Sequence record: OR757434.1
DNA: 64,000 nucleotides
Reading direction: 5' to 3' (one strand)
Source of the DNA: Escherichia phage vB-EcoP-XT18
In this document: positions 1 through 31,839 of the stretch, piece by piece
How the letters are laid out: the number at the start of each line of letters is the position of its first letter
Numbering within the stretch: the stretch's first letter is position 1
The notes under the pieces: generated by a model
Databases searched by the model: none
Told to the model about the DNA's origin: nothing
What the model saw: the letters and a program-made list of their open reading frames with translations, nothing else
Made by a program: the position numbers and the translations under genes

Positions 1-885
1 GTGTTGCGGCTTCTGTTGAACATTAAGATTCCATATCCGTGGAAGACTCTGAATGAGATGACCTTCGGTATTCGATGGGGGGAGGTGGTAGCAATCGGTG
101 GTGGTGTAGGTAGTGGTAAAACACTAATTGCTCACGAACTGGTTGCTCATCTGTGCTTAGAGCATGGTTTTAATGGGGGTGGCTTCTTCTTGGAAGAGAA
201 GGTAGGCATGTCTGTTAAGAACATCGCTGGTAAGTCAGCATCAATTCCTTTCCACCGACCTGATGTTGAATATGACGAGGAAGATTTGCGTAATGAAGCA
301 CTTCGTTATGCAGACAAATTCTTCTTGTATGACAACTTTGGGCAGAACGAATGGGAAGACATTAAACAGTGTATCCGTTTCTGGGTAGTTGAAAACCAGT
401 GTAAGTTCATCATTCTTGATAACATTACCGCTCTGGTATCTCATTTAACACCTTCAGAGATTAACACTGAAATCAGTAAGATTGCTTCCGAGCTTGCTGG
501 TATGTGTAAAGAATTAGACTTTACCGCTTTCGTGCTATCTCACCTTAATGCTCCGGCAGGTGGTGCTCCTCACGAAGAAGGTGGACAGGTACGTGAAGTA
601 CAGTTCACTGGCTCTCGTTCTCTTATGCGTTGGTGTCAGTGTATCATTGGCTTTGAGCGTGATAAGCAAGCTGACGGCTTAGCTAAGAACCTCTCAGTCA
701 TTCGATTATTGAAAGAACGTAACTACGGTCAGACTGGTGTCTGTTATACTAAGTATATCAGTGAAACCGGTAGACTTGTAGAAAGGGAAGACTTTGAAGT
801 TGATGAAGATAATCCATTCGTTTTAACTAACGGAGAGGATGCAGCTTCTCTCGTCAACCAAGCAGATGGAGCTTCACCGTGGTAA
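1..885 (+). CDS. DNA primase/helicase, C-terminal DnaB-like helicase domain (5' end lies outside the window)
   Basis: Walker [10 protein letters not shown]; ORF open from base 1; layout like the helicase half of T7 gp4. Confidence 0.8.
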
Positions 886-1433
886 AGAAAAAGAAAGTGT
901 TTGCATTTGATATCGAAAGTAATGCACTATACGATGACATAACTAAAGTATGGTGTATTTACATTTTCGATGTTGAAACTGGTGAAAGGTGGGGCTATCG
1001 GCCTCACCAAATTGAAGATGGGATTCGTAAACTTACAGAAGCTGATGTGCTCGTTGGTCATAACATTATTGACTTTGACTTACCTGCTCTGAAAAAGATG
1101 TATCCCTCTTTGATTAAATATAATTTTAACGTCTTTGACACTTTATGTCTTAGTCGATATCTTAAACCTGACCGTATTGGTGACAGTCCTGAGTACCCGA
1201 AAGGTGACCCTAGACATGGCCCAAGAGGTCATGGCTTGAAGCAATGGGGTGAGTTCTTAGAGGAACTTAAAGGTGATTACGGTGAGCAAGAGGAAGCATG
1301 GGATGCTTTCACTGAAGATATGTTTACTTATTGTGAGCAGGACGTTAACTTAACCGTTAAGGTTTATAAATACTTGTGTGAACTCACAGGATTTGATCCT
1401 TACGACCCACCTTCATTATATTGGAAAATGTAA
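879..1433 (+). CDS. Family-A DNA polymerase, 3'-5' exonuclease domain only (part 1 of a split polymerase)
   Basis: [19 protein letters not shown] and YCEQDV resemble Exo I/II/III motifs and the T7 gp5 N-terminus; ORF stops at the exo/pol boundary. Confidence 0.8.
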
Positions 1434-1434
1434 A

Positions 1435-2796
1435 ATGATTGTTATCCCGATTAACCAAATTGAAGATAAGGTTGCTCAACAACCCGATATCACTGTTGGT
1501 CGTCATTTCATTGAACAGTTGATTAACAACAACTTGGTTCCAGACGGTATCTGTCCCATCATTACTGGTGGGGCTGTTCGTGATGCTGTTATTAATAATA
1601 CAGCTCCGCACGACATTGATATCTTTATCGTCAGAGGGCAAACACCAAGAACACAAAACACTTTCACTTCAGTGGGCCGTTGGCAAGCTCTTGGGAGTGA
1701 ACTTGAAAGCAATGTGAAAGAGTGGCTTGAGTCACAAGATATTGAGTATTCATCTCTTCTTGCTGAAGCTACAGATGAGCCATACGCAGGGACTTCTCGA
1801 TTAACATTCACTGATATCATTGAATTTCAGTGGCATGGAACGCGAATCCAATTCATGTTTAACTATCCCACCTCTATCGAAGAGGTTCTAGATAATTTTC
1901 CTATGATGTGTCGTGGTGCTATGACTCTTGATAAGCTATTCATGACCATTCATGGATATTTGGCTATGACTTCTCCAATTCCAGTGGTTGTGACTGATCG
2001 AGAGATTAAATATGTCCACAAGAAGTGGCCTAATTCACAGGTGCTAAGGTTCCAAACCCCGGGAGTTGCTTTTCATTATATGGCACATGCTCGGCAACAA
2101 CCCATACCTCAGATGGTCAGGGATCTGGTTAATAACCAAGGTCAAGTATATCTTATTGGCGACACAGCAAGTCCTCAATATTGTGTTGACCAAGACATGA
2201 GTCGATTCTTTGGAATCCCTTATGAAGAAATTCAGTTAATGTCAAGTGTTAATGGATCTAGTCGGATTAGTGCGTATTGGTCTGAAGGGTTGACAAACCT
2301 GACAACTAACACAGGAGGAGATCTCCTTGGTCGGGAAGAAGAACCTAACCGACACAATGCAATTGAAGGGGTTTTTGTAGCCCCTGCAATGCGCCGAGCA
2401 CAAGAGTCACGAAATCTAAGCTCTACTCGTAGAACATCTTTTGAAGAAACTCTTGGTGTTACTAGCGATTCATTTGAGCGGTGGTTGTCTAGACGTTCTA
2501 ATGGTCAATCAAATGGTTTGACTGTTAGCCGTCACCAGTTCTCTGGTCAGAGTTTAGCTGTTGGTGATAGCAACGCACCTGTTATGGCTGTGTGGACCGA
2601 TGAAGGTGTGGCCCAAGATGTGGTAAGTAGTCTTGATGTCCCTTCTCATGGTGAATTAGCTGAGACCGTCAGCCGCAATCTCGCTGATCGGTTTGTTGCT
2701 AACAACCCTGAAGTATTAGAGCCTCAAACCCGTACAGTTCGGTTTGCCGATGAAGCAGGTCGTGGAATCTCTTTTGACATGGAAACAAACAACTAA
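1435..2796 (+). CDS. Pol-beta superfamily nucleotidyltransferase, CCA-adding enzyme / poly(A) polymerase-like head domain
   Basis: GGAVRD followed by HDIDIF matches the class II tRNA nucleotidyltransferase signature; C-terminal half is S/T/R-rich and looks disordered; start ATG overlaps the exo-domain stop. Confidence 0.55.
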   Translation: MIVIPINQIEDKVAQQPDITVGRHFIEQLINNNLVPDGICPIITGGAVRDAVINNTAPHDIDIFIVRGQTPRTQNTFTSVGRWQALGSELESNVKEWLESQDIEYSSLLAEATDEPYAGTSRLTFTDIIEFQWHGTRIQFMFNYPTSIEEVLDNFPMMCRGAMTLDKLFMTIHGYLAMTSPIPVVVTDREIKYVHKKWPNSQVLRFQTPGVAFHYMAHARQQPIPQMVRDLVNNQGQVYLIGDTASPQYCVDQDMSRFFGIPYEEIQLMSSVNGSSRISAYWSEGLTNLTTNTGGDLLGREEEPNRHNAIEGVFVAPAMRRAQESRNLSSTRRTSFEETLGVTSDSFERWLSRRSNGQSNGLTVSRHQFSGQSLAVGDSNAPVMAVWTDEGVAQDVVSSLDVPSHGELAETVSRNLADRFVANNPEVLEPQTRTVRFADEAGRGISFDMETNN

Positions 2797-2805
2797 GGAA
2801 TAAGA

Positions 2806-3339
2806 ATGAGTTTACTAGGAAGTGTTGAACTGCATGATGTAATTGACAATGGCTATCTGGATGCGGAGCATAAGTATGTTAACGCTGCTAGTGTGGATAT
2901 CCGTATTGGTGATACTATCCTTGTTGAAGAACAGGCTGATGGCATCGTTGATATTGATGCGAAAGAGAATCTTCAGTGGAAGGAAGTAAAAATCCCTGAA
3001 GAGGGCTTGGTTATCACTCCGGGTCAGTTCTTCTTGGCTCACTCTATGGAGGAGTTTAATCTTCCAGATAACATCTCAAGTCTGTTTGTTCTGCGTTCGT
3101 CTATGGCTCGTTGTGGTTTGAACCACCTTCACGCCGGTTGGGCAGATGCAGGATTTAATAGCAGTAAGCTGACATTTGAATTCCATAACGTAACCAAGCA
3201 CCACAGTTTACGAGTTCGTGCTGGTATGCGTGTTGGTCAGATGGTGATGTTTGAGCACTCTCATGCAGGGGAACATTCCTATGCAGTGAAGGGGCGTTAT
3301 AATAACTCTGAAGGTGTAGTTGCATCTAAAGGTGTGTAA
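2806..3339 (+). CDS. dcd: dCTP deaminase
   Basis: ASVDIRIGDT, RSSMARCGL and YNNSEGVVASKG align by eye with E. coli Dcd motifs. Confidence 0.8.
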   Translation: MSLLGSVELHDVIDNGYLDAEHKYVNAASVDIRIGDTILVEEQADGIVDIDAKENLQWKEVKIPEEGLVITPGQFFLAHSMEEFNLPDNISSLFVLRSSMARCGLNHLHAGWADAGFNSSKLTFEFHNVTKHHSLRVRAGMRVGQMVMFEHSHAGEHSYAVKGRYNNSEGVVASKGV

Positions 3340-3546
3340 ATGACTGAAGAAGAGTTCCAAGAACTGAAAGGTTTGACTACCGAGGTTCAATTAAAAGCTA
3401 TGACATTTGGTCGAGCATGTCATCAATTTGATATATGCGTCGAAAGCAGTAAAGAAGCTTGTAAGAGCTATATGGATAAGAAGCACCTTGAATGGGGTAA
3501 AGCCTCTAACGATCTTTATAACTATATGAAGGGTTTAGTAAAATGA
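3340..3546 (+). CDS. hypothetical protein
   Basis: ORF in operon context. Confidence 0.4.
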   Translation: MTEEEFQELKGLTTEVQLKAMTFGRACHQFDICVESSKEACKSYMDKKHLEWGKASNDLYNYMKGLVK

Positions 3547-3740
3547 AAAAGTGGATTGTTCGTGTACATGATGATATGACTGGAGACTTGGTAGCTGTAG
3601 ATTTTATTAACACTCGAGAACACGCCCGTAGGGTCAAAAACCAATACAAGTCTACTTTTAGACTCAATAAGGTTACAATAGGAAAAGCTATTGTGAATAA
3701 CGAAGGTGCTCTTTTTGCCAACAGCAAGGTTTATTATTAA
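3543..3740 (+). CDS. small basic protein, paralog family A member 1
   Basis: shares W..V...TR.EAR..KK...VYY pattern with 3740-3949, 3959-4159 and 6501-6710. Confidence 0.45.
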   Translation: MKKWIVRVHDDMTGDLVAVDFINTREHARRVKNQYKSTFRLNKVTIGKAIVNNEGALFANSKVYY

Positions 3741-3949
3741 TGAGACCAATCACTATGAGACAGTTTTGGTTAGCAAAGATTAAGTGGGCATCAGGTGGTA
3801 TGACTATGACTGCACTTCCTACTCGTCAACAGGCTCGAGATTTTAAAAAGACTATGCTTACTGGTGACGTGGTCAATAGTATCAGTATCCATAAGGCCAA
3901 GGAGTATTCTTCTGGTCGTGTTTATATCAGCGGAAAGGTACATTACTAA
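3740..3949 (+). CDS. small basic protein, paralog family A member 2
   Basis: paralog pattern, ends VHY. Confidence 0.45.
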   Translation: MRPITMRQFWLAKIKWASGGMTMTALPTRQQARDFKKTMLTGDVVNSISIHKAKEYSSGRVYISGKVHY

Positions 3950-3958
3950 TGAAAAAAG

Positions 3959-4159
3959 ATGTGGGCGATTCGTGTTGTTTGGGATCTTGATCAACACACG
4001 AGAAAAGATAGCATCAAATTGTTTGACACTCGCAAAGAGGCTCGTATTGCTAAGAAACAGTTGAAGACTCTGGGCACAATAGTAAAAAGCGCTGATATAC
4101 ATCGCTGGTACGAAGACCCTAACTCGGGTTCTTTTATGTCTAAAGTAATTTATTACTGA
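3959..4159 (+). CDS. small basic protein, paralog family A member 3
   Basis: paralog pattern, ends VIYY. Confidence 0.45.
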   Translation: MWAIRVVWDLDQHTRKDSIKLFDTRKEARIAKKQLKTLGTIVKSADIHRWYEDPNSGSFMSKVIYY

Positions 4160-4183
4160 TTGGTAGTAGATATGGTAACTCTC

Positions 4184-4192
4184 AAATGTATA
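4184..4192 (+). promoter_or_regulatory. AAATGTATA, variant of the recurring TAATGTATA putative phage-sigma promoter motif
   Basis: motif about 40 nt upstream of the 4232 start. Confidence 0.3.
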
Positions 4193-4231
4193 TAGAGTAC
4201 AATAAGAATTTGTATTTTACAGGAGAGAGTT

Positions 4232-4558
4232 ATGTTAGATTTGAGTAAAGTGGCCCCGCCCACTGAAGAGATTACAAAATCCAAGGTGATGCAACAGTTT
4301 TATCATCGTGATATGCTTGGTCGCTTTATCAAGAATCGTGATGTTGTTGCTTGGTCTATTGGTAATCAAGGATATCTGTTGAAGGTTCTTCAGGTTACAG
4401 GTTCAACTGCTAAGCGAGTTAAGGTGTATGACCCTGAAATGGGGCGTTCTAAGTCAGTAGACCCGCAGAACTGCATCGTAATTACCCAGCAGGTGATAGC
4501 AAATCTAGAAAGAAATGTAGCAAACTCTACTGAGTTAGAAGGAGAAGACCCTAAGTGA
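4232..4558 (+). CDS. hypothetical protein
   Basis: ORF with GGAG-type RBS. Confidence 0.45.
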   Translation: MLDLSKVAPPTEEITKSKVMQQFYHRDMLGRFIKNRDVVAWSIGNQGYLLKVLQVTGSTAKRVKVYDPEMGRSKSVDPQNCIVITQQVIANLERNVANSTELEGEDPK

Positions 4559-5049
4559 TTCCAAAGGAATTGGAAGGGAAGATTGATGTAACAGAGGATG
4601 GTAGAGTATTTACTATAAAAAGTGGAAGGTTTTTAACCCTCCACACTAATGGTGCCTATTACAGAGTTACTATTTACTTTCCTGAAGGATTAAAGAATTT
4701 CTATGTCCACAGGCTGGTTGCTAGTAAGTACATACCGAACCCTGATAATCTTCCATGTGTCAACCATAAGGATGGCAATAAACTTAACAATCATAAAGAT
4801 AATCTTGAATGGTGTACCCACCGAGAAAACTCTCAACATGCATCATCATTAGGTCTGATGGTACAGAGGTTTGGAGAAGACAATCCGCAGTCTAAACTTA
4901 CTCTAGAAGATGTAGAGTACTGTAGGAGAGTTTATATCCCTCGAGATAAAGAGTTTGGAGGCTCTGCCCTTGCAAGACGTTTTGGTGTCTCTCAGCAAGT
5001 GATATCAAAAGTTCTACTTAATCAAACTTGGAGGGAATATAATGCATAA
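4555..5049 (+). CDS. HNH homing endonuclease with C-terminal HTH
   Basis: VNHKDGNKLNNHKDNLEWCTHRENSQH; paralog of 41312-41824. Confidence 0.8.
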   Translation: MIPKELEGKIDVTEDGRVFTIKSGRFLTLHTNGAYYRVTIYFPEGLKNFYVHRLVASKYIPNPDNLPCVNHKDGNKLNNHKDNLEWCTHRENSQHASSLGLMVQRFGEDNPQSKLTLEDVEYCRRVYIPRDKEFGGSALARRFGVSQQVISKVLLNQTWREYNA

Positions 5050-5605
5050 GAATGTTTTTGATTTACCTGAGATTGGTCGTGCCGAATATAATATGTTAGA
5101 CCGATCAGAGCTTTCAATCTCTCGCCTTGAAACAATGCAGGGTATGATTAGTGGAAACAGCCTAGAACACATCCTGAGCTGCTTACAAGCTAACATAGAA
5201 CTCTTGCATATCAAAGCTAAAAACTACCATTGGAACGTCTCTGGTGCAGGATTTCAGGGTGTTCATGGTATGTTTGATGAGCTGGAAGATTACGCACGAC
5301 AAGTAGGAGATCGTATTGCTGAACGTATGCGTTACCACTGTGTTAAAGTGGACGCCACAGCAGCCAATTATCTCTCCCATGCTTGGTTCTCAGAGGGTAA
5401 TGCTGACCTAGATATGGACGGTATGCTCTCTGATATGTGCATGACCTTGATGTGTATTATTGAGAAGATGGATGAGTTTGATGGTGATTTAGCCACTTAT
5501 CCAGTTGATCAGAGTATGCTTCAAGAAATTAATGAAGGTCTTGGCAAGTATTGCTACTTCGTCAAGAGCAACATGTCCCACTCAAGTGGCGATGTGTCTT
5601 ACTAA
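5042..5605 (+). CDS. Dps/ferritin-like protein
   Basis: KNYHWNVSGAGFQGVHGMFDELEDYARQVGDRIAER resembles the Dps core HWN..G..F..H..F.E....D.IAER. Confidence 0.6.
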   Translation: MHKNVFDLPEIGRAEYNMLDRSELSISRLETMQGMISGNSLEHILSCLQANIELLHIKAKNYHWNVSGAGFQGVHGMFDELEDYARQVGDRIAERMRYHCVKVDATAANYLSHAWFSEGNADLDMDGMLSDMCMTLMCIIEKMDEFDGDLATYPVDQSMLQEINEGLGKYCYFVKSNMSHSSGDVSY

Positions 5606-5666
5606 AAACCTCCGCCCTGTCTCCTAACCCGAGGTGGGGCGAACTTATTTATAAGGATATAGATAT

Positions 5667-5846
5667 ATGTTATCAGCAATCGTATGGGGTATTTGGGCTG
5701 TCTTTATTGGTGGTGGTATCTATTGGGCTTCTGGCAAGCTTATTGAAGAAACTCCTGACAAGAAAGGTGAGATTCAAACAGCATCAACCATCATGGTTGT
5801 CGTAGCTGTTGTTATCCCATTCCTGCTTCACCTCCTGACTGCATAA
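5667..5846 (+). CDS. small membrane protein (59 aa, below the ORF-track cutoff)
   Basis: ATG with AAGGA RBS; two hydrophobic segments; the overlapping track ORF 5551-5805 is in another frame and less plausible. Confidence 0.4.
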   Translation: MLSAIVWGIWAVFIGGGIYWASGKLIEETPDKKGEIQTASTIMVVVAVVIPFLLHLLTA

Positions 5847-5855
5847 GGGTTTGAT

Positions 5856-6041
5856 ATGATTTCACTGATTGTGTGGGCCGTGTGGTCGTTAATAGTTGGT
5901 ACTGTTATATATAAAGCTCGAAATTTAGCAATTAAAGAAAACCCAGCAGAAGAGGATGTTAAAGCTATCAAGCTAGGCAGTGTTGTTCTGGTACATTTTG
6001 CTATAACACTACCTCTTGTTATTATTCTTTGTATGCTATAA
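5856..6041 (+). CDS. small membrane protein
   Basis: two hydrophobic segments; similar to 5667-5846. Confidence 0.4.
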   Translation: MISLIVWAVWSLIVGTVIYKARNLAIKENPAEEDVKAIKLGSVVLVHFAITLPLVIILCML

Positions 6042-6231
6042 GGAAACCAAAGAGTGAAACTAAACCTACCTGAAGAATTACAAGCACATGCCATTATCGT
6101 TAGTGGCTGTGTGATGGGTCTTGGTCAAACAAAGAAGATTGCTCATGACTTAGCAAAAGGTCAGTATAAATCTTTTATTGTTGTTCCTGCTACCCAACGT
6201 CATATCAACCTGTTTATTAACAAGGAATAGA

Positions 6232-6504
6232 ATGTCTAAAGTGATTAAGTTTTATAGCGATCAGTGTGCTCCATGTAAAGCAATGGCTCCTACCTTTGAG
6301 AAGGTTGTTAAGGAGTTCGATGTAGAAGTAGAAGAGATTAACATCCTTGAAGGTGATGGTCGTGAACAAGCTGTTAAGTATGGTGTAAGAAGCATCCCTG
6401 CTTTCGTTGTACCTGACCGTAATAGTGGTGCACACTATAGTCTCTCTGGTATGCAGACCGAAGCAAACCTGAAAGCATTCTTAACTACTGCCCTAGGTGT
6501 TTGA
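6232..6504 (+). CDS. thioredoxin-like protein
   Basis: CAPC active-site motif in thioredoxin-fold context; ATG at 6232 has an RBS, track start 6178 is probably too far upstream. Confidence 0.65.
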   Translation: MSKVIKFYSDQCAPCKAMAPTFEKVVKEFDVEVEEINILEGDGREQAVKYGVRSIPAFVVPDRNSGAHYSLSGMQTEANLKAFLTTALGV

Positions 6505-6710
6505 TTATGAAAAAATATTGGACGGTGGTATATTACCTCTACCAAGACCCGGCTATACCTGTTACAGAGCACTTTGCTACTCGTAAAGATGCTCGCCGTT
6601 TTAAGAAGGCTCTTAAGATGTCTCCAAAGATTTATAGTAAAGTAAGCTTACATAAATCAACATTGTCAGAGAAGGGAACCTTAGTGGTTTGTTATGTAAA
6701 AGAATATTAA
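6501..6710 (+). CDS. small basic protein, paralog family A member 4
   Basis: TRKDARRFKKAL...VKEY pattern. Confidence 0.45.
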   Translation: MIMKKYWTVVYYLYQDPAIPVTEHFATRKDARRFKKALKMSPKIYSKVSLHKSTLSEKGTLVVCYVKEY

Positions 6711-6725
6711 TAAGGAAATTCACGG

Positions 6726-7217
6726 ATGAATGATATTGATCCATCAATAAAAGAAGCTCTTGATTATGACCCTTTGACTGGAGATTTCCGATGGGTTAAA
6801 ACTTATGGAAAAGGGCGCAAAGGGTCTATAGCTGGTTCTATAAATACCAACGGGTATTTGAGAATCGTTTATAAAGGTGTTAGGTATTATGCTCATCGAC
6901 TTGCTTACTGGTGGGACACTGGATTGCTTCCTGAAGAAGTGGACCATGTAGACCGCAACAGACTAAATAACAAAAGAGAGAACCTTAGAGGGACTACTAG
7001 GTCAGGGAATGGACTCAACAAAATAGCCCAAAGTAACAACTTATCAACCGGAGTGATTGGAGTAACTCTTCATAGAAGGAAAAGTGGCTCTATTGCTTAC
7101 CGGGCGGTATTCAAATCTAAGCACATAGGACTCTTCTCAACTATAGAAGAAGCCTCTAAAGCATATAATAAAGTCAAGGAGACTTATATAAATGACAATC
7201 AAAGCTTCACTAATTGA
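6726..7217 (+). CDS. HNH homing endonuclease
   Basis: VDHVDRNRLNNKRENLR HNH core. Confidence 0.75.
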   Translation: MNDIDPSIKEALDYDPLTGDFRWVKTYGKGRKGSIAGSINTNGYLRIVYKGVRYYAHRLAYWWDTGLLPEEVDHVDRNRLNNKRENLRGTTRSGNGLNKIAQSNNLSTGVIGVTLHRRKSGSIAYRAVFKSKHIGLFSTIEEASKAYNKVKETYINDNQSFTN

Positions 7218-7839
7218 TAACTTCGGTTCCGACCTTACTGTGGTCAATGCTGCTCGTGTGACTATGGGGGTAGAAAGAGAGGAGTTGAAAGAAAGTGATA
7301 CTCGGCTTATTAACTTCCTAGCTCGAGAGCGACACGTAAGCCCTTTTCGCCACCCACAAGCTAGCTTCAGATGCGAAGCCCCTATAGCAATTGCACGTCA
7401 GCTACAGAAGCATCAAGTTGGTTTTTCTTGGAATGAGATGAGTCGTAGATATAAAGATGGAGCAGTGGATATTTTTATACCTAAAGAAATCTTCTCTCGC
7501 CCCGATGATCTACATTCGGGTTCTGGAACACTCCTTGAAGGAGATGAAGAGGTAAAGGCTTTAGCTTTGTTTAACTCTGCATATGAGGCATCTCTTGCTA
7601 GTTATGATGAATTAATTAAGTTCGTAGCTCCTGAACAGGCTAGATTTGTTTTACCTCAAGGTATGGTAACTACTTGGTACTGGACTGGTTCTTTGTATGG
7701 CTGGTTTGAGTTGTGTCGTCAGCGACTATCCTCCCATGCTCAGTATGAAGTTCGAGTGTTTGCTCAATCTCTGGATGAAGAGATGGCTAAACTCTACCCA
7801 ATCTCGTGGGCAGCTCTGAAGAAAACTTTGGAGAGTTAA
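7192..7839 (+). CDS. thyX: FAD-dependent thymidylate synthase (ThyX-like) with variant active-site motif
   Basis: by-eye alignment to ThyX (VNAARVTMG, SHAQYE); canonical RHR-x7-S appears as KHQ-x8-S. Confidence 0.7.
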   Translation: MTIKASLIDNFGSDLTVVNAARVTMGVEREELKESDTRLINFLARERHVSPFRHPQASFRCEAPIAIARQLQKHQVGFSWNEMSRRYKDGAVDIFIPKEIFSRPDDLHSGSGTLLEGDEEVKALALFNSAYEASLASYDELIKFVAPEQARFVLPQGMVTTWYWTGSLYGWFELCRQRLSSHAQYEVRVFAQSLDEEMAKLYPISWAALKKTLES

Positions 7840-8024
7840 TGACACATAAAGTGTGTAGCTTCTGTAAGAAAGAGAAGACTATCATCAACTTCAAACCTAA
7901 TCCTGTAACTGGTCTGTCTCATGTTATGTGTCACTCTTGTAGGATATATCTTGAAACAAAGCACACCATTAACAGGTTGCATTATTATCACCCAACAACA
8001 TTCAAATTTAAGGTTGTTAAATGA
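7839..8024 (+). CDS. small zinc-ribbon protein
   Basis: CSFC...CHSC; ATG overlaps the thyX stop. Confidence 0.4.
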   Translation: MTHKVCSFCKKEKTIINFKPNPVTGLSHVMCHSCRIYLETKHTINRLHYYHPTTFKFKVVK

Positions 8025-8224
8025 AAACATTATGGACTCTTGACTGTCAAGATGATGACGGAGAGCGTTGGACTTGGAAATATTTCCTAGGGAAACCAAC
8101 ACCCGAGAACCCTGCTTTGGATTGTGCTTCATATGAAGATGCTAAGAAGCTGGTAAATGGAGAAAAGGTTTGGTCTCCGGATAATGAAGTTCAGTACTTT
8201 TTAACAGAACGGAAATTTTCATAA
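8021..8224 (+). CDS. hypothetical protein
   Basis: ORF, translationally coupled. Confidence 0.4.
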   Translation: MKTLWTLDCQDDDGERWTWKYFLGKPTPENPALDCASYEDAKKLVNGEKVWSPDNEVQYFLTERKFS

Positions 8225-8547
8225 TGATTGACGGTAATACATTTAGGACTTCAAATGGAAGTGAAATAAGTCCCGCTGAAGTGATTAATCGGCACAGAAG
8301 GCAATTGATCATCCATTCCTATTTGTATTACTGGTTGGATGACCCTATCTGGTCTGATGATAAATGGCAACAAGTTGCTAACGATTTGGTTGAGTTGCAA
8401 GCCTTGTATCCAGAGCCTACCGGAGTCTTTGACAATGAGTTCAAAGATTGGGATGGTTCTACAGGGATGCATCTCCCACATAACGAAGCTGTTGCTTGTA
8501 TGGCGACAGCTGTTTACAGACTTCATAAAGAGGTTAACTTCGCATGA
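8224..8547 (+). CDS. hypothetical protein
   Basis: ORF. Confidence 0.45.
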   Translation: MIDGNTFRTSNGSEISPAEVINRHRRQLIIHSYLYYWLDDPIWSDDKWQQVANDLVELQALYPEPTGVFDNEFKDWDGSTGMHLPHNEAVACMATAVYRLHKEVNFA

Positions 8548-8744
8548 GCGTAGTTTATGTTCTAGAAAGATATGCTGAAGATCACAACAGTATTGTTGCC
8601 ATATTTAAATATGCCCCAGATGTTGAGGATATTTTGAATGTGACTCACTTAACTAATGTTGATAAAATCAAAGACCTCATCAGGAATGACAATGCCCACA
8701 TAGGTGACTCTCTGTGGTCTCTTACCGAATGGACATTGTGGTGA
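8544..8744 (+). CDS. hypothetical protein
   Basis: ORF. Confidence 0.4.
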   Translation: MSVVYVLERYAEDHNSIVAIFKYAPDVEDILNVTHLTNVDKIKDLIRNDNAHIGDSLWSLTEWTLW

Positions 8745-8926
8745 AGTGCTCTAGGTGTGAAGGAACAAACCTTCATTTAAGTAACAAGGTTATCAGAGAG
8801 CTTGCCAAAGGCTCTCCAACCAAAGGGAAGAACAAACGATTTACTAACGTCAGGGTTTATACAGCAATCTGTAAAGACTGCTTAACTACTGAGTGTCATT
8901 ACGAAGAAATTGGAGAGCGTAAATGA
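8714..8926 (+). CDS. small Cys-rich protein
   Basis: CSRC...CKDC...ECH. Confidence 0.35.
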   Translation: MVSYRMDIVVKCSRCEGTNLHLSNKVIRELAKGSPTKGKNKRFTNVRVYTAICKDCLTTECHYEEIGERK

Positions 8927-9660
8927 GTCGTCGTCAATCACGGAAAGAATCACGGAAAGACCTTCGTCGGGAAGCACTTGTCACTCGTAAGGGTAAGCGC
9001 GAGTTTGAAGAGGTGGTTTTAGCAAAGCCTGTAGTCCCTCAGAACCAGTTCCAGTCTGAACTGCTCAATGCTATCAAGACTAAACAAGTTGTGTTCACAG
9101 ACGCTCCTGCGGGCTGCGGGAAGACCTTTGTAATCACTTCCACAGTTATTGATGCACTGAAGAGTGGTAAGATTCAGAAGATCATTCTGAGTCGCCCTTC
9201 TGTTGGCATGGGTAACTCACTTGGGTTGCTTCCGGGAGGAATGCGTGAGAAATTTGAACCATATCTGATGCCAATCATTGATGTTATTACTCAGAGATAT
9301 GGTAAGGGGTTCTATGAATGCCAGCTCGGTAATAGTAACATTGAGTTTGTACCTCTGGAGTATCTCCGTGGTCGTTCTTTCAATGATGCTATCGTTATCG
9401 TTGATGAGTTCCAGAACACCACTAAAGATGAAGCCTTCTCAATCATGACTCGATTGGGAGAAACCTCTCAGCTGTTCTGCATGGGTGATACAAACCAGCA
9501 TGATATGCGTGGTCGTGAGAGTGGTCTTACTTGGGCTACTAACTTTATTGATGAACATGATCTGTATGAGTTCGCTGAGATTGTAGACGGCGAATCAGAT
9601 GACATTGTTCGTTCTGGTTTCTGTAAAGCTATTGTTAAAGCAATGGAAAAGAAAGCTTAA
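8923..9660 (+). CDS. phoH: PhoH-like ATPase
   Basis: Walker A APAGCGKT, Walker B IVIVDEFQN. Confidence 0.8.
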   Translation: MSRRQSRKESRKDLRREALVTRKGKREFEEVVLAKPVVPQNQFQSELLNAIKTKQVVFTDAPAGCGKTFVITSTVIDALKSGKIQKIILSRPSVGMGNSLGLLPGGMREKFEPYLMPIIDVITQRYGKGFYECQLGNSNIEFVPLEYLRGRSFNDAIVIVDEFQNTTKDEAFSIMTRLGETSQLFCMGDTNQHDMRGRESGLTWATNFIDEHDLYEFAEIVDGESDDIVRSGFCKAIVKAMEKKA

Positions 9661-9671
9661 ACAGTAACTTA

Positions 9672-9680
9672 TAATGTATA
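9672..9680 (+). promoter_or_regulatory. TAATGTATA, putative phage-sigma-dependent promoter
   Basis: motif about 35 nt upstream of the 9717 ATG; same 9-mer recurs upstream of other genes on both strands. Confidence 0.45.
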
Positions 9681-9716
9681 CTCCTTAGTGTACACTGATA
9701 TATTAAGGAGTTTTAA

Positions 9717-10040
9717 ATGGCAGACCATGTAGGAAAGAGAGATTATGCACAAGAAAGACGTACCGCCATCGCAAGGGGTGAAACGGGAATTGGTAGCAAG
9801 AGCGGAGATGCTCAGCGCCACCGTGCACGTCGCATCGTTGAAAAGCGCGATGGAAAAGCTGCTGTCAGAGGTAAAGACGTTGGACACAAGCGAGCCATCA
9901 AGTCAGGAGGCTCTAATGCGTCAAGCAACTTACGTGTTGAAACAGTCAGCGGAAATCGTTCAGCTGGCGGCAAAAGTGGAGATCGAGCTGGGAAGGCAGC
10001 TGGCGCTGCTAAGCGAAAAGGAGCTTTAAGCTCCTCGTAA
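9717..10040 (+). CDS. basic Gly/Lys/Arg-rich protein, possibly nucleic-acid binding
   Basis: AAGGAG RBS 6 nt before the ATG; an alternative frame 9745-10029 is also open. Confidence 0.45.
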   Translation: MADHVGKRDYAQERRTAIARGETGIGSKSGDAQRHRARRIVEKRDGKAAVRGKDVGHKRAIKSGGSNASSNLRVETVSGNRSAGGKSGDRAGKAAGAAKRKGALSSS

Positions 10041-10044
10041 TATG

Positions 10045-10075
10045 AGGCTACCCAAATGGGTGGCCTTTTCTTTTA
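10045..10075 (+). terminator. rho-independent terminator
   Basis: 9-bp stem AGGCUACCC/GGGUGGCCU with one G-U, then UUUCUUUUAU. Confidence 0.6.
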
Positions 10076-10108
10076 TATAAACCGAATTAAACTTCTTAGG
10101 TAATAACT

Positions 10109-10357
10109 ATGTCTATTGTAAAAACTGTAACTATTATTGATGTAATGACTGTCCGTCTGGTTAAGTGGAAATTCACCAACAATCATGGCATTGCTAATCT
10201 CATTGCAAACCAGATTGGTCATAACCCAAAAACAGCTCGTACTAACGTAATCCTCCGTGGTGCTGATGGGAAGTTCATTTCTTATAAGAATAAAGATGTA
10301 GAGAAAGAATTCCGTGTTGCAGTAGAAAACCTCATCCCATTCCCTAAAGGAGTTTAA
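10109..10357 (+). CDS. hypothetical protein, tandem paralog 1
   Basis: shares KTART.V.LR...GKFISY....PFPKG with 10359-10634. Confidence 0.5.
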   Translation: MSIVKTVTIIDVMTVRLVKWKFTNNHGIANLIANQIGHNPKTARTNVILRGADGKFISYKNKDVEKEFRVAVENLIPFPKGV

Positions 10358-10358
10358 T

Positions 10359-10634
10359 ATGAATAAATTAGCTATGGTTCAGATTCGAGACATATACCCT
10401 AACCATCCGGAGAAAACTTGGTCTTATCTGTTGACTGAAAGCAAGACTATTGACACATATCTTGCAGGGGTTGACACTATCCCAACCAGTATCACATTGC
10501 TCCCTCACAAAACAGCCAGAACCCATGTGATGTTACGTGACAGCAAAGGTAAGTTTATCTCTTATCGAGATGCTCGAATCAATAGCGAAATTAAATCTGC
10601 TATGGAATCTTTAACGCCATTCCCAAAAGGTTGA
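10359..10634 (+). CDS. hypothetical protein, tandem paralog 2
   Basis: paralog of 10109-10357. Confidence 0.5.
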   Translation: MNKLAMVQIRDIYPNHPEKTWSYLLTESKTIDTYLAGVDTIPTSITLLPHKTARTHVMLRDSKGKFISYRDARINSEIKSAMESLTPFPKG

Positions 10635-10797
10635 GTGATGAAAGAATACATTTACGTAGGAAAGCGCTGGGTCGGTGATGAATGGGAAGGTGGATACAGC
10701 GTTGTGAAAGCTTTTAAGTCTGAAGAAGATGCTAAGGCGTGGGTCTTAAAAGATGACGTTGGTGAGAGAACTTACATTGAAGTAGAGGTGGAGTAGA

Positions 10798-11214
10798 ATG
10801 CCATTACCAGCTAGACATCAAAACAGATTCCTAGTTCTCAAGTGGGATGATATCGAAATGAATCTCACTGAACACGAACTTGATTTGTTCCATGAACTGT
10901 TGTCAGAGATTCGCTCTGGTATCCCTGATCGTCAGTATGTAGTTATCAGTGATAAGCACCCTCAAGAGTTTGAAGAAGTTTGGGGTATGAAGTTAGCTTA
11001 TATCCAGAGAGCTATTCGAGAAAGAGAAGAAGTCGCTAACCAAAGGGTTGTGGCCCATTTAGTACGAGAGCAACCTCGTGAAGCTGGGGCTAACCATGCA
11101 CCACCTCCTCCTCGTACAGTTATCAATGGGATGGTTAGGGCTTATAGTGACGAAGCTACCATGTTAGATGTGGTAGAAGATAACCAAGCATTTACAGATT
11201 TACTTTACCAATAA
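10798..11214 (+). CDS. hypothetical protein
   Basis: ORF immediately upstream of the polymerase-domain gene. Confidence 0.45.
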   Translation: MPLPARHQNRFLVLKWDDIEMNLTEHELDLFHELLSEIRSGIPDRQYVVISDKHPQEFEEVWGMKLAYIQRAIREREEVANQRVVAHLVREQPREAGANHAPPPPRTVINGMVRAYSDEATMLDVVEDNQAFTDLLYQ

Positions 11215-11230
11215 TTTAAAGGAGTATAAA

Positions 11231-13075
11231 GTGAGCAACCCGGACGCTCTCCCATTTTTGACAGAGATGACTGTCGCTGATATAATCTCTAAGCAAGCGA
11301 AGCACGGAGTGAGTTTCAACCGAAGAAATGCTCGGTGGTATGTTCACCTCCTTAAAGAGATTATTGTTAATATTGACAAAGAACTGATTCCTCTCTTACC
11401 TAAGATGCGATTAGATGGCTCTACTTACATGAAACCATTTAAGAAGTCTGGAGCTTTACAGAAATGGCCTCAAGCCTATTGTGATAGAGTTGGACTTAAG
11501 AGAGAAGACATTGGTGGAGCATTCACCTGTGTTGAATACGTAGACTTTGACCCATCGAAAGATGCACGAGTTAAAGAAGCCCTTATGGATGAGGGTTTTC
11601 TTCCTCCAGAGTTTAACGTATCAAAGAAACCTTGGAATACTTTTGAAATCAAGAAAGATATGCGAAAGTATGGAACATACCAAGCATGGTATTCAGCTTG
11701 GATGCGAGGTAATGCTAAACAGAAGCAGACAGCCGAGATGGTTGACGCTGATATTAGGAAGTTCTTAGAAAAGCATTTTAGGTTTAAGACTAAGAACTAT
11801 ATGAAGGCTTATGTATTTGGTTTAGGTTTAAATCCTAACCGACGTAGACCTATCACTTTTGACGAGATTAAGATAGCACTAGCTACCTCAAACAAGTGGC
11901 CTACAGCTCCTACAAACCTCGAGGAGACTCTTGAAGAAGGGTTAGGGGGTGAGTTAGGAAGTGTCGGAAGTTTGCTTAAGAGACGCGTTGTAGCGGCTCA
12001 CAGGCTAGGTCTTATCAGTGGACTAATAGCAAAGGAACGCGAAGATGGTAAACTTTCGGCAGAAGCTAACAGCTGCGCTACGCCGACTTTTCGATTCAAA
12101 CATCGTATCGTGGTTAATATTCCCTCCCGTGGTTTGTTTGGTCATGAGTGTCGCAGTTTGTTTGAGTCTGACTATAACTCAGATGATGATCACTCTCGTC
12201 CTTTCGTTATTACTAACGTTGTTCCTGATGGTTGTTATATACGAAAAGGTACTAACGTAATTTACGAGAAAGGTAAGCCGGGGAAGAAAGATAAGCCTGT
12301 AGGTGCTTACAAATATTACATACCCGCTGGTAAAGAAGTATTCTTAGGGTATGATGGTTCTGGGTTAGAGTTGCGTATGCTGGTACATTATCTAGTAAAA
12401 GAGTGCCTTGATATGATGGAGGAGGCTAAACTAGAAAATGACAAAGTTAAATATCTAAGAGCTGAGAAAGGCTTAGAAGCTGCCTATACATACAGAGATG
12501 TACTGCTGTCTGGTGATATTCATTCCCACAATCAGAAACTCGCTGGGCTTCCAACTCGTGACAATGCAAAAACCTTCATCTATGGATTCCTGTATGGAGC
12601 AGGAGCAGCTAAAATTGGGGAAATAGTTGGAGGGGGTGCTCAAGAAGGTGAAATTCTTAGAGAGCGATTCTTAGCGGAATGTCCTTGTATTCCTATCGTA
12701 CTGGAGAGAGTTCAGGCCCGAGCGGAATCAGGCACTTTGGAAGGTGTGGATGGTCGTAAGTTAACTATGAGACGAGATGCTACTGGTAAGGTTATGGTGC
12801 ATAAAGCACTGAATACTCTACTTCAGAGTGCAGGTGCCATTGTCATGAAGTACTCTATTCTGTTTACAAACAAATGGGTAGAGCAGCAGAATATTAGAGG
12901 AAACAAAGTGATCGATTATCATGATGAAGCACAGTGGTCTGTCAACCGTAACGACGTTGATAAAATGAAGAAGATAGCTGAGACTTGTGTTAAGAAGGCA
13001 GGTGAATATCTAAACATGCACTGTGAACTAGCTTCTGATTGTAAAATCGGATTGAATTGGATGCAAACTCACTAA
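11231..13075 (+). CDS. Family-A DNA polymerase, polymerase domain (part 2 of the split polymerase)
   Basis: GYDGSGLELRML, SGDIHSHNQKLAGLPTRDNAKTFIYGFLYGAG and DYHDEAQ correspond to T7 gp5 motifs A, B and C. Confidence 0.85.
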   Translation: MSNPDALPFLTEMTVADIISKQAKHGVSFNRRNARWYVHLLKEIIVNIDKELIPLLPKMRLDGSTYMKPFKKSGALQKWPQAYCDRVGLKREDIGGAFTCVEYVDFDPSKDARVKEALMDEGFLPPEFNVSKKPWNTFEIKKDMRKYGTYQAWYSAWMRGNAKQKQTAEMVDADIRKFLEKHFRFKTKNYMKAYVFGLGLNPNRRRPITFDEIKIALATSNKWPTAPTNLEETLEEGLGGELGSVGSLLKRRVVAAHRLGLISGLIAKEREDGKLSAEANSCATPTFRFKHRIVVNIPSRGLFGHECRSLFESDYNSDDDHSRPFVITNVVPDGCYIRKGTNVIYEKGKPGKKDKPVGAYKYYIPAGKEVFLGYDGSGLELRMLVHYLVKECLDMMEEAKLENDKVKYLRAEKGLEAAYTYRDVLLSGDIHSHNQKLAGLPTRDNAKTFIYGFLYGAGAAKIGEIVGGGAQEGEILRERFLAECPCIPIVLERVQARAESGTLEGVDGRKLTMRRDATGKVMVHKALNTLLQSAGAIVMKYSILFTNKWVEQQNIRGNKVIDYHDEAQWSVNRNDVDKMKKIAETCVKKAGEYLNMHCELASDCKIGLNWMQTH

Positions 13076-13451
13076 ATTCAGAACTGAAAGATTGGAATAC
13101 AAATGAACTAGTCTTATTGATTAGTTCATAACAAGGAGATTGAAGTGGAAGAGATGCAATCGGATTGGTGTTATCGTCAGAGCGCCATCTGTAATGAACA
13201 AGGACGTCCTGATGAAGCTGAGTTTTATTTAGAACTCGCTGAACTATGGAAAGAGAGAGAGGAAAAGAATGACTGCAACTGAATTGAAAGAAACCATGTC
13301 CACTGAAGAAGGTAAAGCTTTCTTCCTAACTCAAGTACACTCTATGGGTAAAGATGCCCTTCGCCAAGCAGTCGTTGAGCTTACTGGTGTAGTGATTGAC
13401 TTGAGTATTGAAAATGAAACACTTGAAGCTAAAGTAAAAAGTTAAATAAGA

Positions 13452-13476
13452 AGCTGCCTTAGGGCGGCTTTTCTTG
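13452..13476 (+). terminator. rho-independent terminator
   Basis: AGCUGCC-UUAG-GGCGGCU then UUUCUUG. Confidence 0.5.
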
Positions 13477-13491
13477 TCTAAAGGATTTGAC

Positions 13492-13884
13492 ATGAATATT
13501 GGTTTAGATTACGATGATACTTACACCTCAGATAAGAAGCTGTGGCGCTCTGTGGTGGCATTAATGCAAGCTAAAGGTTATGATGTACGTTTTGTAACTT
13601 ATCGCTTTGCAGAGCCTAATGGATATGATAATCACGACATTAAGATTGATGCAGAGTGTTTGCAAATTCCTATCATCTTTTGTAATGGTGTGCAGAAGGA
13701 TGAGGTTTGTCGACAGTTAGGTTTCTTTGTAGATATCTGGATTGACGATTTCCCTGTTGGAATCCCCAAAAAGGACCACCTAGATGGTATGCTGAAGGGT
13801 GTAAGACTTAATGACCTTAGGGCAGCACCTCCTGTAGAAATAGCCGCTCCTGTGTACTCTGAAGAGCCTCTGGTGATTCGATGA
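13492..13884 (+). CDS. HAD-like phosphatase or nucleotidase
   Basis: DYDDT fits HAD motif I (DxDxT); IWIDDFP fits the acidic motif; ATG at 13492 has an AAGGA RBS. Confidence 0.45.
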   Translation: MNIGLDYDDTYTSDKKLWRSVVALMQAKGYDVRFVTYRFAEPNGYDNHDIKIDAECLQIPIIFCNGVQKDEVCRQLGFFVDIWIDDFPVGIPKKDHLDGMLKGVRLNDLRAAPPVEIAAPVYSEEPLVIR

Positions 13885-14048
13885 AAAAGTATAGTGTATG
13901 GTTTAACGAGGTAGAAGAAGGTTTTGATGAAGTTGGTGGATGGGTTAATATCCTAAACACTGATGATATAGAAGAGGCCGAGAAGTGCGCCCTAAACTAT
14001 AACTCTGGATATTATGAAAGAAATTGGGAATACGAGGAAGAAGTATGA
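13881..14048 (+). CDS. small acidic hypothetical protein (55 aa)
   Basis: ATG overlaps the upstream stop (ATGA); below the track cutoff. Confidence 0.3.
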   Translation: MKKYSVWFNEVEEGFDEVGGWVNILNTDDIEEAEKCALNYNSGYYERNWEYEEEV

Positions 14049-14266
14049 TTTGGATTCACACTTATAGAATTGGAAAGAAAGGGCTTACTACTGTTCACAC
14101 ATCTGAAGACAGTGCTAAAGCATCTCAGGCTGTACTGAAAGGAAAGATCACACCTTATGTAGTCGCTGAAGAAAAGAAAAGTCCTCCGGTTCTAGAATAT
14201 CTAGGAACAGGTAAGGCTTACACAGCACTGGATGTTATTAACAACAAACAAGGAGATGTGGTGTAA
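14045..14266 (+). CDS. hypothetical protein
   Basis: ATGA coupling; ORF. Confidence 0.35.
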   Translation: MIWIHTYRIGKKGLTTVHTSEDSAKASQAVLKGKITPYVVAEEKKSPPVLEYLGTGKAYTALDVINNKQGDVV

Positions 14267-14483
14267 AATGGAATACATTGATAAATACTCAAGTGAAGAT
14301 TCAAAAGACGCTGAAGTTTTGTTCGTACTGAAAACAGACTGTTTAGAACATGGACAGCTTATCAACTTTATTGAATTGGCAAAACTTAAAGAAGAAATTG
14401 ATCAACTATACAGTGATGAGCAATCCAGATTACTTTCCTTGTCCCTGCTAGGTGACTTAACCTGTGATGGTTGCATGATATGA
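14232..14483 (+). CDS. hypothetical protein
   Basis: ORF. Confidence 0.3.
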   Translation: MLLTTNKEMWCKMEYIDKYSSEDSKDAEVLFVLKTDCLEHGQLINFIELAKLKEEIDQLYSDEQSRLLSLSLLGDLTCDGCMI

Positions 14484-14953
14484 TAGAAGATCTTCTGGAT
14501 GAGTTCTTTGTTTGTGATTTATCATCTGGGAAAGTGTTCTGGAGAATTCACAACGGAACAAAATGCAGGCGGGGTGACGAGGCAGGAACTTCAAAAAAGG
14601 ATGGAAGAGTGCTTATTCGATTGAAAGGAAGAGCCATTTACAGATACCACATCATTTGGTATTTTGCTAATGGTGTTTTACCTAAAGATCAAATAGATCA
14701 CATTGATCGAAACCCTTCCAACGATTCCATAGGCAACCTTAGAGAAGTTAACAACGAGAATAATTCTTGGAACAAGGGTTTGAACTCTAACAACACATCA
14801 GGAGCTAAGGGCGTATACCTCAATTCAAGAGGGAAGTACATAGCCAACATACATATTAGAGGTAAAACTAAATACCTAGGAACTTTCTCAACCCTAGAGG
14901 AAGCCGTCTCTGTTAGAAACAGAGCGGAGGAAGATCATAAATTAACTACCTAA
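14471..14953 (+). CDS. HNH homing endonuclease
   Basis: IDHIDRNPSNDSIGNLREV HNH core. Confidence 0.75.
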   Translation: MHDMIEDLLDEFFVCDLSSGKVFWRIHNGTKCRRGDEAGTSKKDGRVLIRLKGRAIYRYHIIWYFANGVLPKDQIDHIDRNPSNDSIGNLREVNNENNSWNKGLNSNNTSGAKGVYLNSRGKYIANIHIRGKTKYLGTFSTLEEAVSVRNRAEEDHKLTT

Positions 14954-14962
14954 GAGGTCTTT

Positions 14963-15601: not shown

Positions 15602-15867
15602 AAGTTATTGTTTTAAGTTAAGTTTTCTTTTGATTTTAATAGAGAATCAAAGTCCTAGGAGTCCTCAACCTAAATCAAGGATTTCCTCAATTCTCTATTT
15701 TTATCTCGCAGGTGTCTCCTGCCCTTCGGTACTTGCAAGGGTTACGATGATTGCCCAATATACAAGCCTGCAATAGCTTTACTAGCTATACAATATATAC
15801 ATTACTAGTGTGTTATATCTACTACCAAAGATACTTATATTATATAGTACCCTTATCGGTATAAGCG

Positions 15868-15876
15868 TAATGTATA
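15868..15876 (+). promoter_or_regulatory. TAATGTATA, putative phage-sigma-dependent promoter
   Basis: in the 330-bp intergenic region upstream of 15935; an inverted copy lies at 15795-15803. Confidence 0.45.
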
Positions 15877-15934
15877 CTATACATAACCGCTCAAAGAGAG
15901 CAACAATCTTTCAAATTAAATAAGGAAATTAATA

Positions 15935-16681: not shown

Positions 16682-16702
16682 TAACTCTCCTTGTTATAGC
16701 TT

Positions 16703-16726
16703 AGCCACCTTCGGGTGGCTTTTTTC
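16703..16726 (+). terminator. rho-independent terminator
   Basis: perfect stem AGCCACC-UUCG-GGUGGCU then UUUUUU. Confidence 0.75.
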
Positions 16727-16738
16727 GTTGGAGTCAAT

Positions 16739-17234: not shown

Positions 17235-18720
<1,486 letters not shown>

Positions 18721-18730
<10 letters not shown>

Positions 18731-31838: not shown

Positions 31839-31839
31839 A

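Follow-up and report, generated by a model that had tools for sequence, protein, structure and literature searches.

Flavin-dependent thymidylate synthases (ThyX, or FDTS) are homotetramers with bound FAD that convert dUMP to dTMP in an NADPH- and CH2THF-dependent reaction and can complement thyA. They are recognized by a short motif, RHR-x7-S (Myllykallio 2002, cited from PMC2826268), the fuller canonical form of which is R-H-R-x7-S-G/Q-R-Y. Several residues in and around this signature have been assigned to the binding of substrate and cofactor. In the numbering of the T. maritima enzyme (Tm), R78 faces the reduced flavin at its N1/C2=O (PMC11940539), and R78, R80, S88 and R90 are listed as contacts of dUMP (PMC3498832). 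In the M. tuberculosis enzyme, R95 (the equivalent of R78) and Q103 bind the 3'-OH of dUMP; R199 and R107 (the equivalents of R174 and R90) read the uracil; and the phosphate is held by R87, Q106 (the equivalent of position 89), R172 and R107 (PMC9571937).

Among characterized enzymes, the closest to the phage protein described here are T. maritima ThyX (TM0449; 1O26) and T. thermophilus ThyX (6J61), which belong to the same Pfam and TIGRFAM family and have the same fold (TMq 0.86; ~28% identity). Ulmer et al. (2008) are said to have found both arginines of the RHR triplet to be essential in M. tuberculosis ThyX, and reportedly write the motif as RHRX7-8S. The closest viral systems are the thyX (thy1) genes of phiEco32 and other members of the genus Kuravirus. 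That of phage Paul (YP_010674382.1) is orthologous to the gene described here, occupies the same genomic position and has an identical KHQVGFSWNEMSRRY motif; in RefSeq it is named as the thyX/thy1 of phiEco32. Canonical RHR-x7-SGRY ThyX enzymes also occur in phages, for example in NP1-type Pseudomonas phages. One of these, gp61 of Quinobequin-P09, is likewise encoded among replication and dNTP genes (dUTPase, ligase), but it keeps RHR-x7-S-G-R-Y and is ~28% identical to the ThyX considered here.

The gene and its product

The DNA that we analysed is a stretch of 64,000 nucleotides, referred to as a whole as ‘the window’. The gene and its putative ribosome-binding site are positioned as follows:

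7176..7181, + strand: Shine–Dalgarno-like AAGGAG, read from the sequence, 10 nt before the thyX ATG (7192)
7192..7839, + strand: thyX, flavin-dependent thymidylate synthase homologue of 215 aa (Pfam, TIGRFAM and PDB matches; predicted fold)

A sequence-only reading of this DNA had identified the product as ThyX, and the curated models bear this out. The ORF matches Pfam Thy1 (PF02511) over its full length (7–203) with an E-value of 5.4e-43 and 147.4 bits, against a cut-off of 24.8, and the NCBIfam equivalog model for thyX, TIGR02170, with 128.2 bits against a cut-off of 87.9. AlphaFold2 predicts the monomer with a pLDDT of 95.5 and a pTM of 0.89, and when this model was compared with known structures by Foldseek, the top 50 matches were all to T. 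maritima ThyX (TMq 0.81–0.86; probability 1.00). ORF 7192..7839 is a real gene, then, and the curated models, the fold and the catalytic residues all make its product a member of the ThyX family.

The gene is already known, having been deposited and annotated as thyX in Escherichia phage vB-EcoP-XT32 (OR757435.1) and in all of its relatives. The ORF is 100% identical to the XT32 CDS, the product of which is annotated ‘thymidylate synthase ThyX’. In a megablast search, positions 6000–16000 matched XT32 at 100% identity and 97 further records, nearly all of them from Escherichia phages, at 80–98%. XT32 itself is placed in Kuravirus, Gordonclarkvirinae, among the phiEco32-like phages. Its thyX is a minority allele: identity to the Paul gene is 79% in amino acids and 71% in nucleotides, whereas the flanking DNA is 88–96% identical.

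Among sequences in the PDB (phmmer), the best solved relatives are the T. thermophilus (6j61, 2.7e-30) and T. maritima (1.2e-22) enzymes. The matches also include PolB of Streptomyces cacaoi (4p5a, 1.9e-20), a ThyX-like UMP/dUMP C5-methylase of secondary metabolism (polyoxin biosynthesis), and ThyX-like folds can evidently change substrate. It might be asked, then, whether the phage enzyme methylates some other nucleotide, UMP, as PolB does, or a cytosine nucleotide. This we regard as scarcely credible. The match to PolB is weaker than those to bona fide ThyX; the phage protein, at 215 aa no longer than a minimal ThyX, can be aligned with T. maritima ThyX from end to end; neither of the two arginines that recognize O2/N3/O4 of uracil varies, which speaks against cytosine; and the gene lies in a phage replication and dNTP module, with a dCTP deaminase and a dNMP kinase and with no nucleoside-antibiotic cluster.

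The variant signature

The signature of the phage enzyme is found at:

7408..7452, + strand: variant ThyX signature K73-H74-Q75-VGFSWNEM-S84-R85-R86-Y87 (aligned by HMMER and MAFFT with the T. maritima and T. thermophilus enzymes)

An alignment by eye had given this motif as KHQ-x8-S, a departure from the canonical form, and that proves to be exact. In the HMMER pairwise alignment and in a 138-sequence MAFFT alignment that includes characterized ThyX enzymes, K73-H74-Q75 (codons AAG CAT CAA, 7408..7416) stand opposite R78-H79-R80 of T. maritima, and the KHQ-x8-S reading is consistent across three independent alignments. Compared with the T. maritima enzyme, R78 is replaced by K, R80 by Q and A82 by G77, after which there is an insertion of one residue. 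Eight residues (V76 G77 F78 S79 W80 N81 E82 M83) instead of seven thus separate the triplet from S84 (codon 7441..7443), the counterpart of Tm S88. The canonical glycine beside the catalytic serine, Tm G89, has become arginine, R85 (S-R-R-Y versus S-G-R-Y). E58 is also replaced by R, and the loop that follows the motif is unlike that of T. maritima.

Other residues important for dUMP binding and for flavin and folate chemistry are all present: Tm H53, Q75, E86, S88, R90, Y91, R147 and R174 correspond to H48, Q70, E82, S84, R86, Y87, R151 and R178 of the phage protein. The two enzymes also have S83, N85, E144, H178 and Q180 (Tm numbering) in common. The literal RHR-x7-S signature is absent from the phage enzyme and from the whole of its subfamily, including copies that serve as chromosomal housekeeping genes. 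The string is for this reason too narrow to define the family, and lacking it does not place the phage protein outside ThyX.

A large and mostly viral subfamily

In a database of 5.8 billion proteins, the 120 closest homologues, down to 52% identity, have KHQ-x8-S-x-R-Y in 119 cases and KSQ in one. When 1.84 billion cluster representatives were searched exhaustively with HMMER, 6909 relatives were recovered, and more than 600 stretches that match KHQ patterns occur in IMG/VR. For a closer view of the subfamily, 136 sequences were aligned, namely nine from the first search, and those members of 195–300 aa among the top 150 50%-identity cluster representatives. In this alignment, the three positions of the triplet vary: Tm position 78 is K (107) or R (28); position 79 is H (118) or S (17); and position 80 is Q (76), T (16), K (14), H (9), V (7) or R (4). 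Glycine occupies position 82 in 129 of the 136, and arginine position 89 in 128. H53, P56, F57, H59, Q75, E86, S88, R90, Y91, E144, R147, R174 and Q180 are invariant or nearly so, with the uracil-reading pair, R174 and R90, invariant. Among the signature, base-reading and flavin residues, relaxation is thus confined to positions 78, 79 and 80.

Judged from these alignments, the KHQ motif is one state of a signature that has drifted, in a mainly viral subfamily, from RHR-x7-S to [K/R]-[H/S]-x-x-G-x6-S-R-R-Y. KHQ-x8 is the normal, conserved form of a very large branch of ThyX, most of it viral, and not the peculiarity of one phage; KHQ-type and canonical RHR enzymes are separate branches of one family. 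In several relatives, inteins are inserted exactly between KHQxGF and SWNE, that is, inside the motif, which is what one would expect of a site critical to function. Of 47 conserved columns, the phage enzyme has the consensus residue of the subfamily in 43; its departures are S24T and three residues of a loop (F101, H108 and S109). This loop, R-x-R-P...K-Q-G-S, differs from the consensus in the Kuravirus clade, and we count it against the reading of the gene as an active dTMP synthase.

In the searchable literature, we found no description of a subfamily-wide relaxation of RHR, and neither a biochemical assay nor a thyA complementation of a KHQ-type ThyX. Members of the KHQ/x8 subfamily are absent from the PDB sequence matches, and the Dictyostelium ThyX paper holds no information on the motif.

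The subfamily is not confined to viruses. A genome scan for KHQ/RHT-x8 ThyX, based on a 14-sequence alignment, shows that cellular copies sit in housekeeping contexts. Those of Spirochaetia, Chloroflexota and TM6/Babeliales chromosomes have the same hallmarks as the phage enzyme, [K/R]H[Q/T]-xG-x6-SRRY, at 37–46% identity, and are paired, as in the phage, with pyrimidine genes or with dCTP deaminase; they are housekeeping genes, however, whereas the phage gene is a viral auxiliary one. In a complete Spirochaetia chromosome (OZ251568.1), KHQ-type thyX lies between citrate synthase/AKR/SDR genes and pyrD, pyrF/E, pyrB and pyrC, and a second spirochaete MAG has the same series of ORF sizes upstream of thyX. 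In Chloroflexota MAGs, the gene has a 2-oxoacid dehydrogenase operon as its neighbour. In TM6/Babeliales, at least 12 loci encode the RHT-x8-SRRY form (R-H-T, with E replacing Q75). In one of them, thyX is next to genes for a class II aminoacyl-tRNA synthetase and ribosomal protein L19, and a dCTP deaminase gene overlaps its stop codon, an operon in which the two are translationally coupled. The thyX–dcd pairing of this reduced cellular genome is the same as that of the phage, and is the Gram-negative route to dTMP.

The codons of the motif bear on selection. Across 159 fetched loci, the motif K is encoded by AAG in 85 cases and AAA in 57, and the motif Q by CAG in 61 and CAA in 39; these loci were retrieved with KHQ-containing patterns, which biases the triplet frequencies but leaves the synonymous turnover informative. 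Arginine is one nucleotide change away from the motif K and Q codons. Between XT32 and Paul, 29% of thyX nucleotides differ, with a pN of 0.148 and a pS of 0.775 (synonymous sites are saturated), and the motif is identical. Because K and Q are kept by way of both synonymous codons although arginine is one change away, and because pN is low against a saturated pS, the motif and the substrate and flavin pocket are, by all indications, under purifying selection.

This bears on whether the phage protein might be a relic, a catalytically weak or inactive ThyX kept for dUMP or flavin binding, for NADPH oxidase activity, or as a scaffold within a replication/dNTP complex. Two of the three signature residues have changed, as a relic would allow, and the E. 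coli host has ThyA, so that the gene is not strictly needed. We nevertheless think a relic very improbable: S88, R90, Y91, R147 and R174 would not stay invariant in one, selection on the substrate and flavin pocket is strong across hundreds of 50%-identity clusters, and in cellular genomes the gene forms an operon with dcd or lies beside pyr genes.

Possible roles of the changed residues

How might an enzyme of this kind manage without the canonical arginines? K73 would keep the positive charge that R78 offers to flavin N1/C2=O and to the 3'-OH of dUMP. The guanidinium group of R80, lost with the change to Q75, may be offset by the subfamily-specific R85, which stands at a phosphate-contact position (Tm G89; Q106 of M. 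tuberculosis). At the level of the clade, compensation for Q75 by R85 is plausible, because Tm position 89 already contacts the dUMP phosphate. Given that both RHR arginines are reportedly essential in M. tuberculosis ThyX, activity of the phage enzyme would depend on such compensation. Covariation inside the subfamily, with loss of R80 accompanied by gain of R89, was considered and rejected: among the few sequences with R80 or G89, positions 80 and 89 show no clean pattern, and the case for R85 in place of R80 comes from a single contrast between clades.

Neighbouring genes and the proposed route to dTTP

Three further genes in the window are relevant here, two of them for nucleotide metabolism:

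2806..3339, + strand: dCTP deaminase, supplying dUTP/dUMP (Pfam DCD 3.5e-34; phrog_1663 2.7e-60)
6726..7217, + strand: HNH homing-endonuclease ORF, a neighbour and no part of the enzyme (Pfam HNH_3 1.2e-10); its 3' end overlaps the thyX start
18721..19335, + strand: dNMP kinase, dTMP to dTDP (phrog_139 deoxynucleoside monophosphate kinase 3e-41; so annotated in OR757435.1)

For the kinase, Pfam gives only weak P-loop matches. The HNH ORF is absent from the corresponding position in phage Paul; compared with that phage, XT32 has an HNH endonuclease gene inserted immediately upstream of thyX. The deaminase and kinase genes had been described as adjacent to thyX. Both are real, but the former is 3.9 kb upstream of it and the latter 10.9 kb downstream; all three are on the same strand and in the same replication module.

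Together, dCTP deaminase, ThyX and dNMP kinase lead from dCTP to dTDP by the canonical route. The deaminase would convert dCTP to dUTP, which would then be converted to dUMP. ThyX would convert dUMP to dTMP by reductive methylation, taking the carbon from CH2-THF and using FAD reduced by NADPH. The phage kinase would take dTMP to dTDP and the host NDK would complete dTTP, the raised level of which could feed the replication of a genome of 41.8% GC in a host of ~51% GC. We infer, with considerable confidence, that the gene product, from a divergent ThyX subfamily, is active as a dTMP synthase.

The sequence-only reading had left two interpretations of the motif side by side, a divergent but active enzyme, and an altered specificity, for example for a modified pyrimidine. 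The former is favoured, because KHQ/x8 is conserved across a large subfamily that includes chromosomal copies in pyrimidine contexts, and because all of the base-reading and catalytic residues are kept. The latter finds no positive support in sequence or context. In its most specific form, altered chemistry would have water, rather than the flavin hydride, capture the exocyclic methylene, so as to give 5-hydroxymethyl-dUMP or another C5 product that enters phage DNA and aids the restriction resistance of the Gordonclarkvirinae. The idea is not without attractions: the signature departs from the canonical one, a dNMP kinase is encoded, and an exocyclic methylene is indeed an intermediate of the ThyX reaction (PMC8989533). 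It is, all the same, improbable. The replacement of R78 by K is conservative, and there is no variation at R174 and R90, which read the uracil, or at Y91, H53 and S88. The same KHQ/x8 site recurs in pyrimidine and housekeeping surroundings on cellular chromosomes, and on more than 600 viral contigs among ordinary replication and RNR neighbours.

Among 80 viral loci, the commonest neighbour clusters are family A DNA polymerase (32/80), primase-helicase (29/80) and class II RNR (27/80), followed by DUF3310, endonuclease I and T7-type RNA polymerase. In Aeromonas phages, KHQ-type thyX accompanies NT5C, RNR alpha and beta, glutaredoxin and NrdD. No recurrent hypermodification enzyme is present among the ten largest neighbour clusters of these 80 loci, eight of which have a Pfam match. 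Known 5-hmdU pathways, moreover, use ThyA-family enzymes together with a DNA kinase and aGPT-Pplase (PMC8989533). The phage enzyme belongs to the ThyX family and not to the ThyA family, and in the annotated 26 kb (XT32) and 40 kb (Paul) around thyX, where many ORFs are hypothetical, neither a ThyA-family hydroxymethylase nor a 5-hmdU DNA kinase nor aGPT-Pplase is named. A link to thymidine hypermodification of the Phage M6 type was also considered and rejected: the distant Pseudomonas phage match turned out to be an NP1-type member of the Queuovirinae with a canonical RHR ThyX.

Restriction resistance

A further incentive for considering altered chemistry comes from the BASEL study, which reports restriction resistance of the Gordonclarkvirinae that is unexplained, and speculates on pyrimidine modification (PMC11990801). 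The guess there is dU in place of dT, from the dCTP deaminase and a nucleotidyltransferase; thymidylate synthase has no occurrences in the text (PMC11990801). Resistance of this kind leaves room for DNA modification, and we count it against the reading of the gene as an active dTMP synthase. An intact dCTP deaminase–ThyX–dNMP kinase route, on the other hand, argues against dU-for-dT DNA.

Restriction sites in the window point both ways. Several are strongly avoided, with observed against expected numbers of 9 versus 100 for CCWGG, 131 versus 280 for GATC, 0 versus 19 for PstI, 1 versus 12 for KpnI, 1 versus 20 for SacI and 12 versus 36 for AflII. Many of the avoided palindromes contain T, which suggests that such sites are still cleavable and thus tells against altered chemistry, as does the mapping of phiEco32 termini by restriction profiling (PMC9965538). 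Sites for EcoRV (28), EcoKI (8) and EcoP1 (112), in contrast, show no depletion, and so avoidance alone cannot explain the resistance to these three systems. Site avoidance as a full explanation was rejected on these grounds: strong for CCWGG, GATC, PstI, KpnI and SacI, and absent for EcoRV, EcoKI and EcoP1, it is a partial one at best.

The boldest combination of these ideas would be that pyrimidine modification of Kuravirus and Gordonclarkvirinae DNA explains the restriction resistance, and that KHQ-type ThyX is its first committed enzyme, forming a non-methyl C5 product (e.g. 5-hydroxymethyl-dUMP) from the flavin-methylene intermediate. We give it very little credence. If true, KHQ-type ThyX would be the first member of its family shown to produce a modified base for DNA.

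Meaning for the ThyX family

With an active dTMP synthase as the preferred reading, the gene itself is ordinary. The value of the finding lies at the level of the family, and it is a modest one, of the order of family curation: the textbook RHR-x7-S signature fails for a large, mostly viral subfamily of ThyX. Because the more than 600 IMG/VR stretches, all 136 of the aligned sequences and the chromosomal copies depart from it, motif-based filters, such as that in PMC2826268, would discard real ThyX genes.

The thyX allele

The gene for the flavin-dependent thymidylate synthase ThyX (7192..7839) is overlapped at its start by an open reading frame for an endonuclease:

6726..7217, + strand, HNH_3 endonuclease ORF (Pfam HNH_3, 1.2e-10)

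No counterpart of this ORF occurs at the same spot in the RefSeq Kuravirus, phage Paul. The thyX genes of Paul and of phage vB-EcoP-XT32 (OR757435.1; 'XT32'), which matches the window, are 71-75% identical in nucleotide sequence, and their flanks are 88-96% identical; the C-terminal ~50 residues of the two proteins are the same except for one substitution. Alleles of the XT32 type (>=95% identity) are present in only 8 phage records, and 96 records fall at 60-80%. The XT32 gene looks like a homing-associated mosaic allele.

Among other ThyX homologues, four (P0121, P0126, P0160 and P0265; 350-640 aa) contain inteins within the signature motif itself, exactly between KHQxGF and S/C-WNE (e.g. 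the intein/extein junction ...VVHN|SWNERSMRY). The +1 nucleophile of these inteins occupies the position equivalent to S83 of Thermotoga maritima ThyX. Outside phages, a variant signature (RHT-x8-SRRY) occurs in a reduced intracellular bacterium, TM6 bacterium GW2011_GWF2_37_49:

5890..7265 of the TM6 locus (L046), overlapping two-gene unit of thyX and dCTP deaminase

This unit adjoins genes for a class II aminoacyl-tRNA synthetase and ribosomal protein L19, and similar ThyX sequences are found at at least 12 loci in TM6/Babeliales metagenome-assembled genomes.

Neighboring genes

Directly 5' of the dCTP deaminase gene of the window lies a gene that the BASEL paper (PMC11990801) links to possible DNA modification:

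1453..2796, + strand, 'nucleotidyltransferase', 447 aa (phrog_12715, 1e-183)

In Pfam this protein has only a faint match, to the PolyA_pol head domain (E 0.006). It is represented by two coding sequences (89 aa and 358 aa) in OR757435.1, and by one unbroken ORF, 1378..2796, in the window; 5' of about position 4000, the two sequences are offset by 488 bp. The discrepancy points to an indel, or to a difference in assembly or annotation.

Two further genes carry doubtful labels:

5042..5605, + strand, putative Dps-like ORF (Pfam ferritin-like domain, 3.5e-7)
8224..8547, + strand, stand-alone NAD+-binding Ia domain of DNA ligase, 107 aa (PF22745, 2.7e-35)

By coordinates only, the first corresponds to a coding sequence named 'integrase' in the XT32 record and to a stretch labeled 'DNA-binding protein' in the Paul record. 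Because the ferritin-like domain is its sole Pfam match, the sequence suggests a Dps-like product. The second, annotated 'DNA ligase' in relatives, has neither the adenylation nor the OB domain of that enzyme.

Upstream of the point where the window starts, and so outside it, maps a Kuravirus gene cluster seen in phage Paul, just 5' of the primase-helicase:

1111..8522 of the Paul locus (L164), COOH-NH2 ligase, Amidoligase_2, glutamine amidotransferase, ATP-grasp enzyme and gamma-glutamyl cyclotransferase

This cluster is a peptide/amide-ligase system.

Restriction sites and possible anti-restriction

Counts of restriction and methylation sites in the window (1..64000) were compared with those expected from a second-order Markov model. 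Strongly depleted are CCWGG (9 observed, 100 expected), GATC (131, 280), PstI (0, 19), KpnI (1, 12), SacI (1, 20), AflII (12, 36) and EcoRI (8, 21). In the same comparison, sites for EcoRV (28), EcoKI (8) and EcoP1 (112) are not depleted. Immediately downstream of thyX is a small gene:

7839..8024, + strand, Cys-rich ORF, 61 aa (sub-threshold Lar match)

Its similarity to the restriction-alleviation protein Lar (PF14354) is weak (E 8.9e-4). A possible counterpart, a small ORF (77 aa) near and downstream of thyX in phage Paul, is labeled 'anti-restriction nuclease'. Possibly, the 61-aa protein contributes to the restriction resistance reported for the Gordonclarkvirinae.
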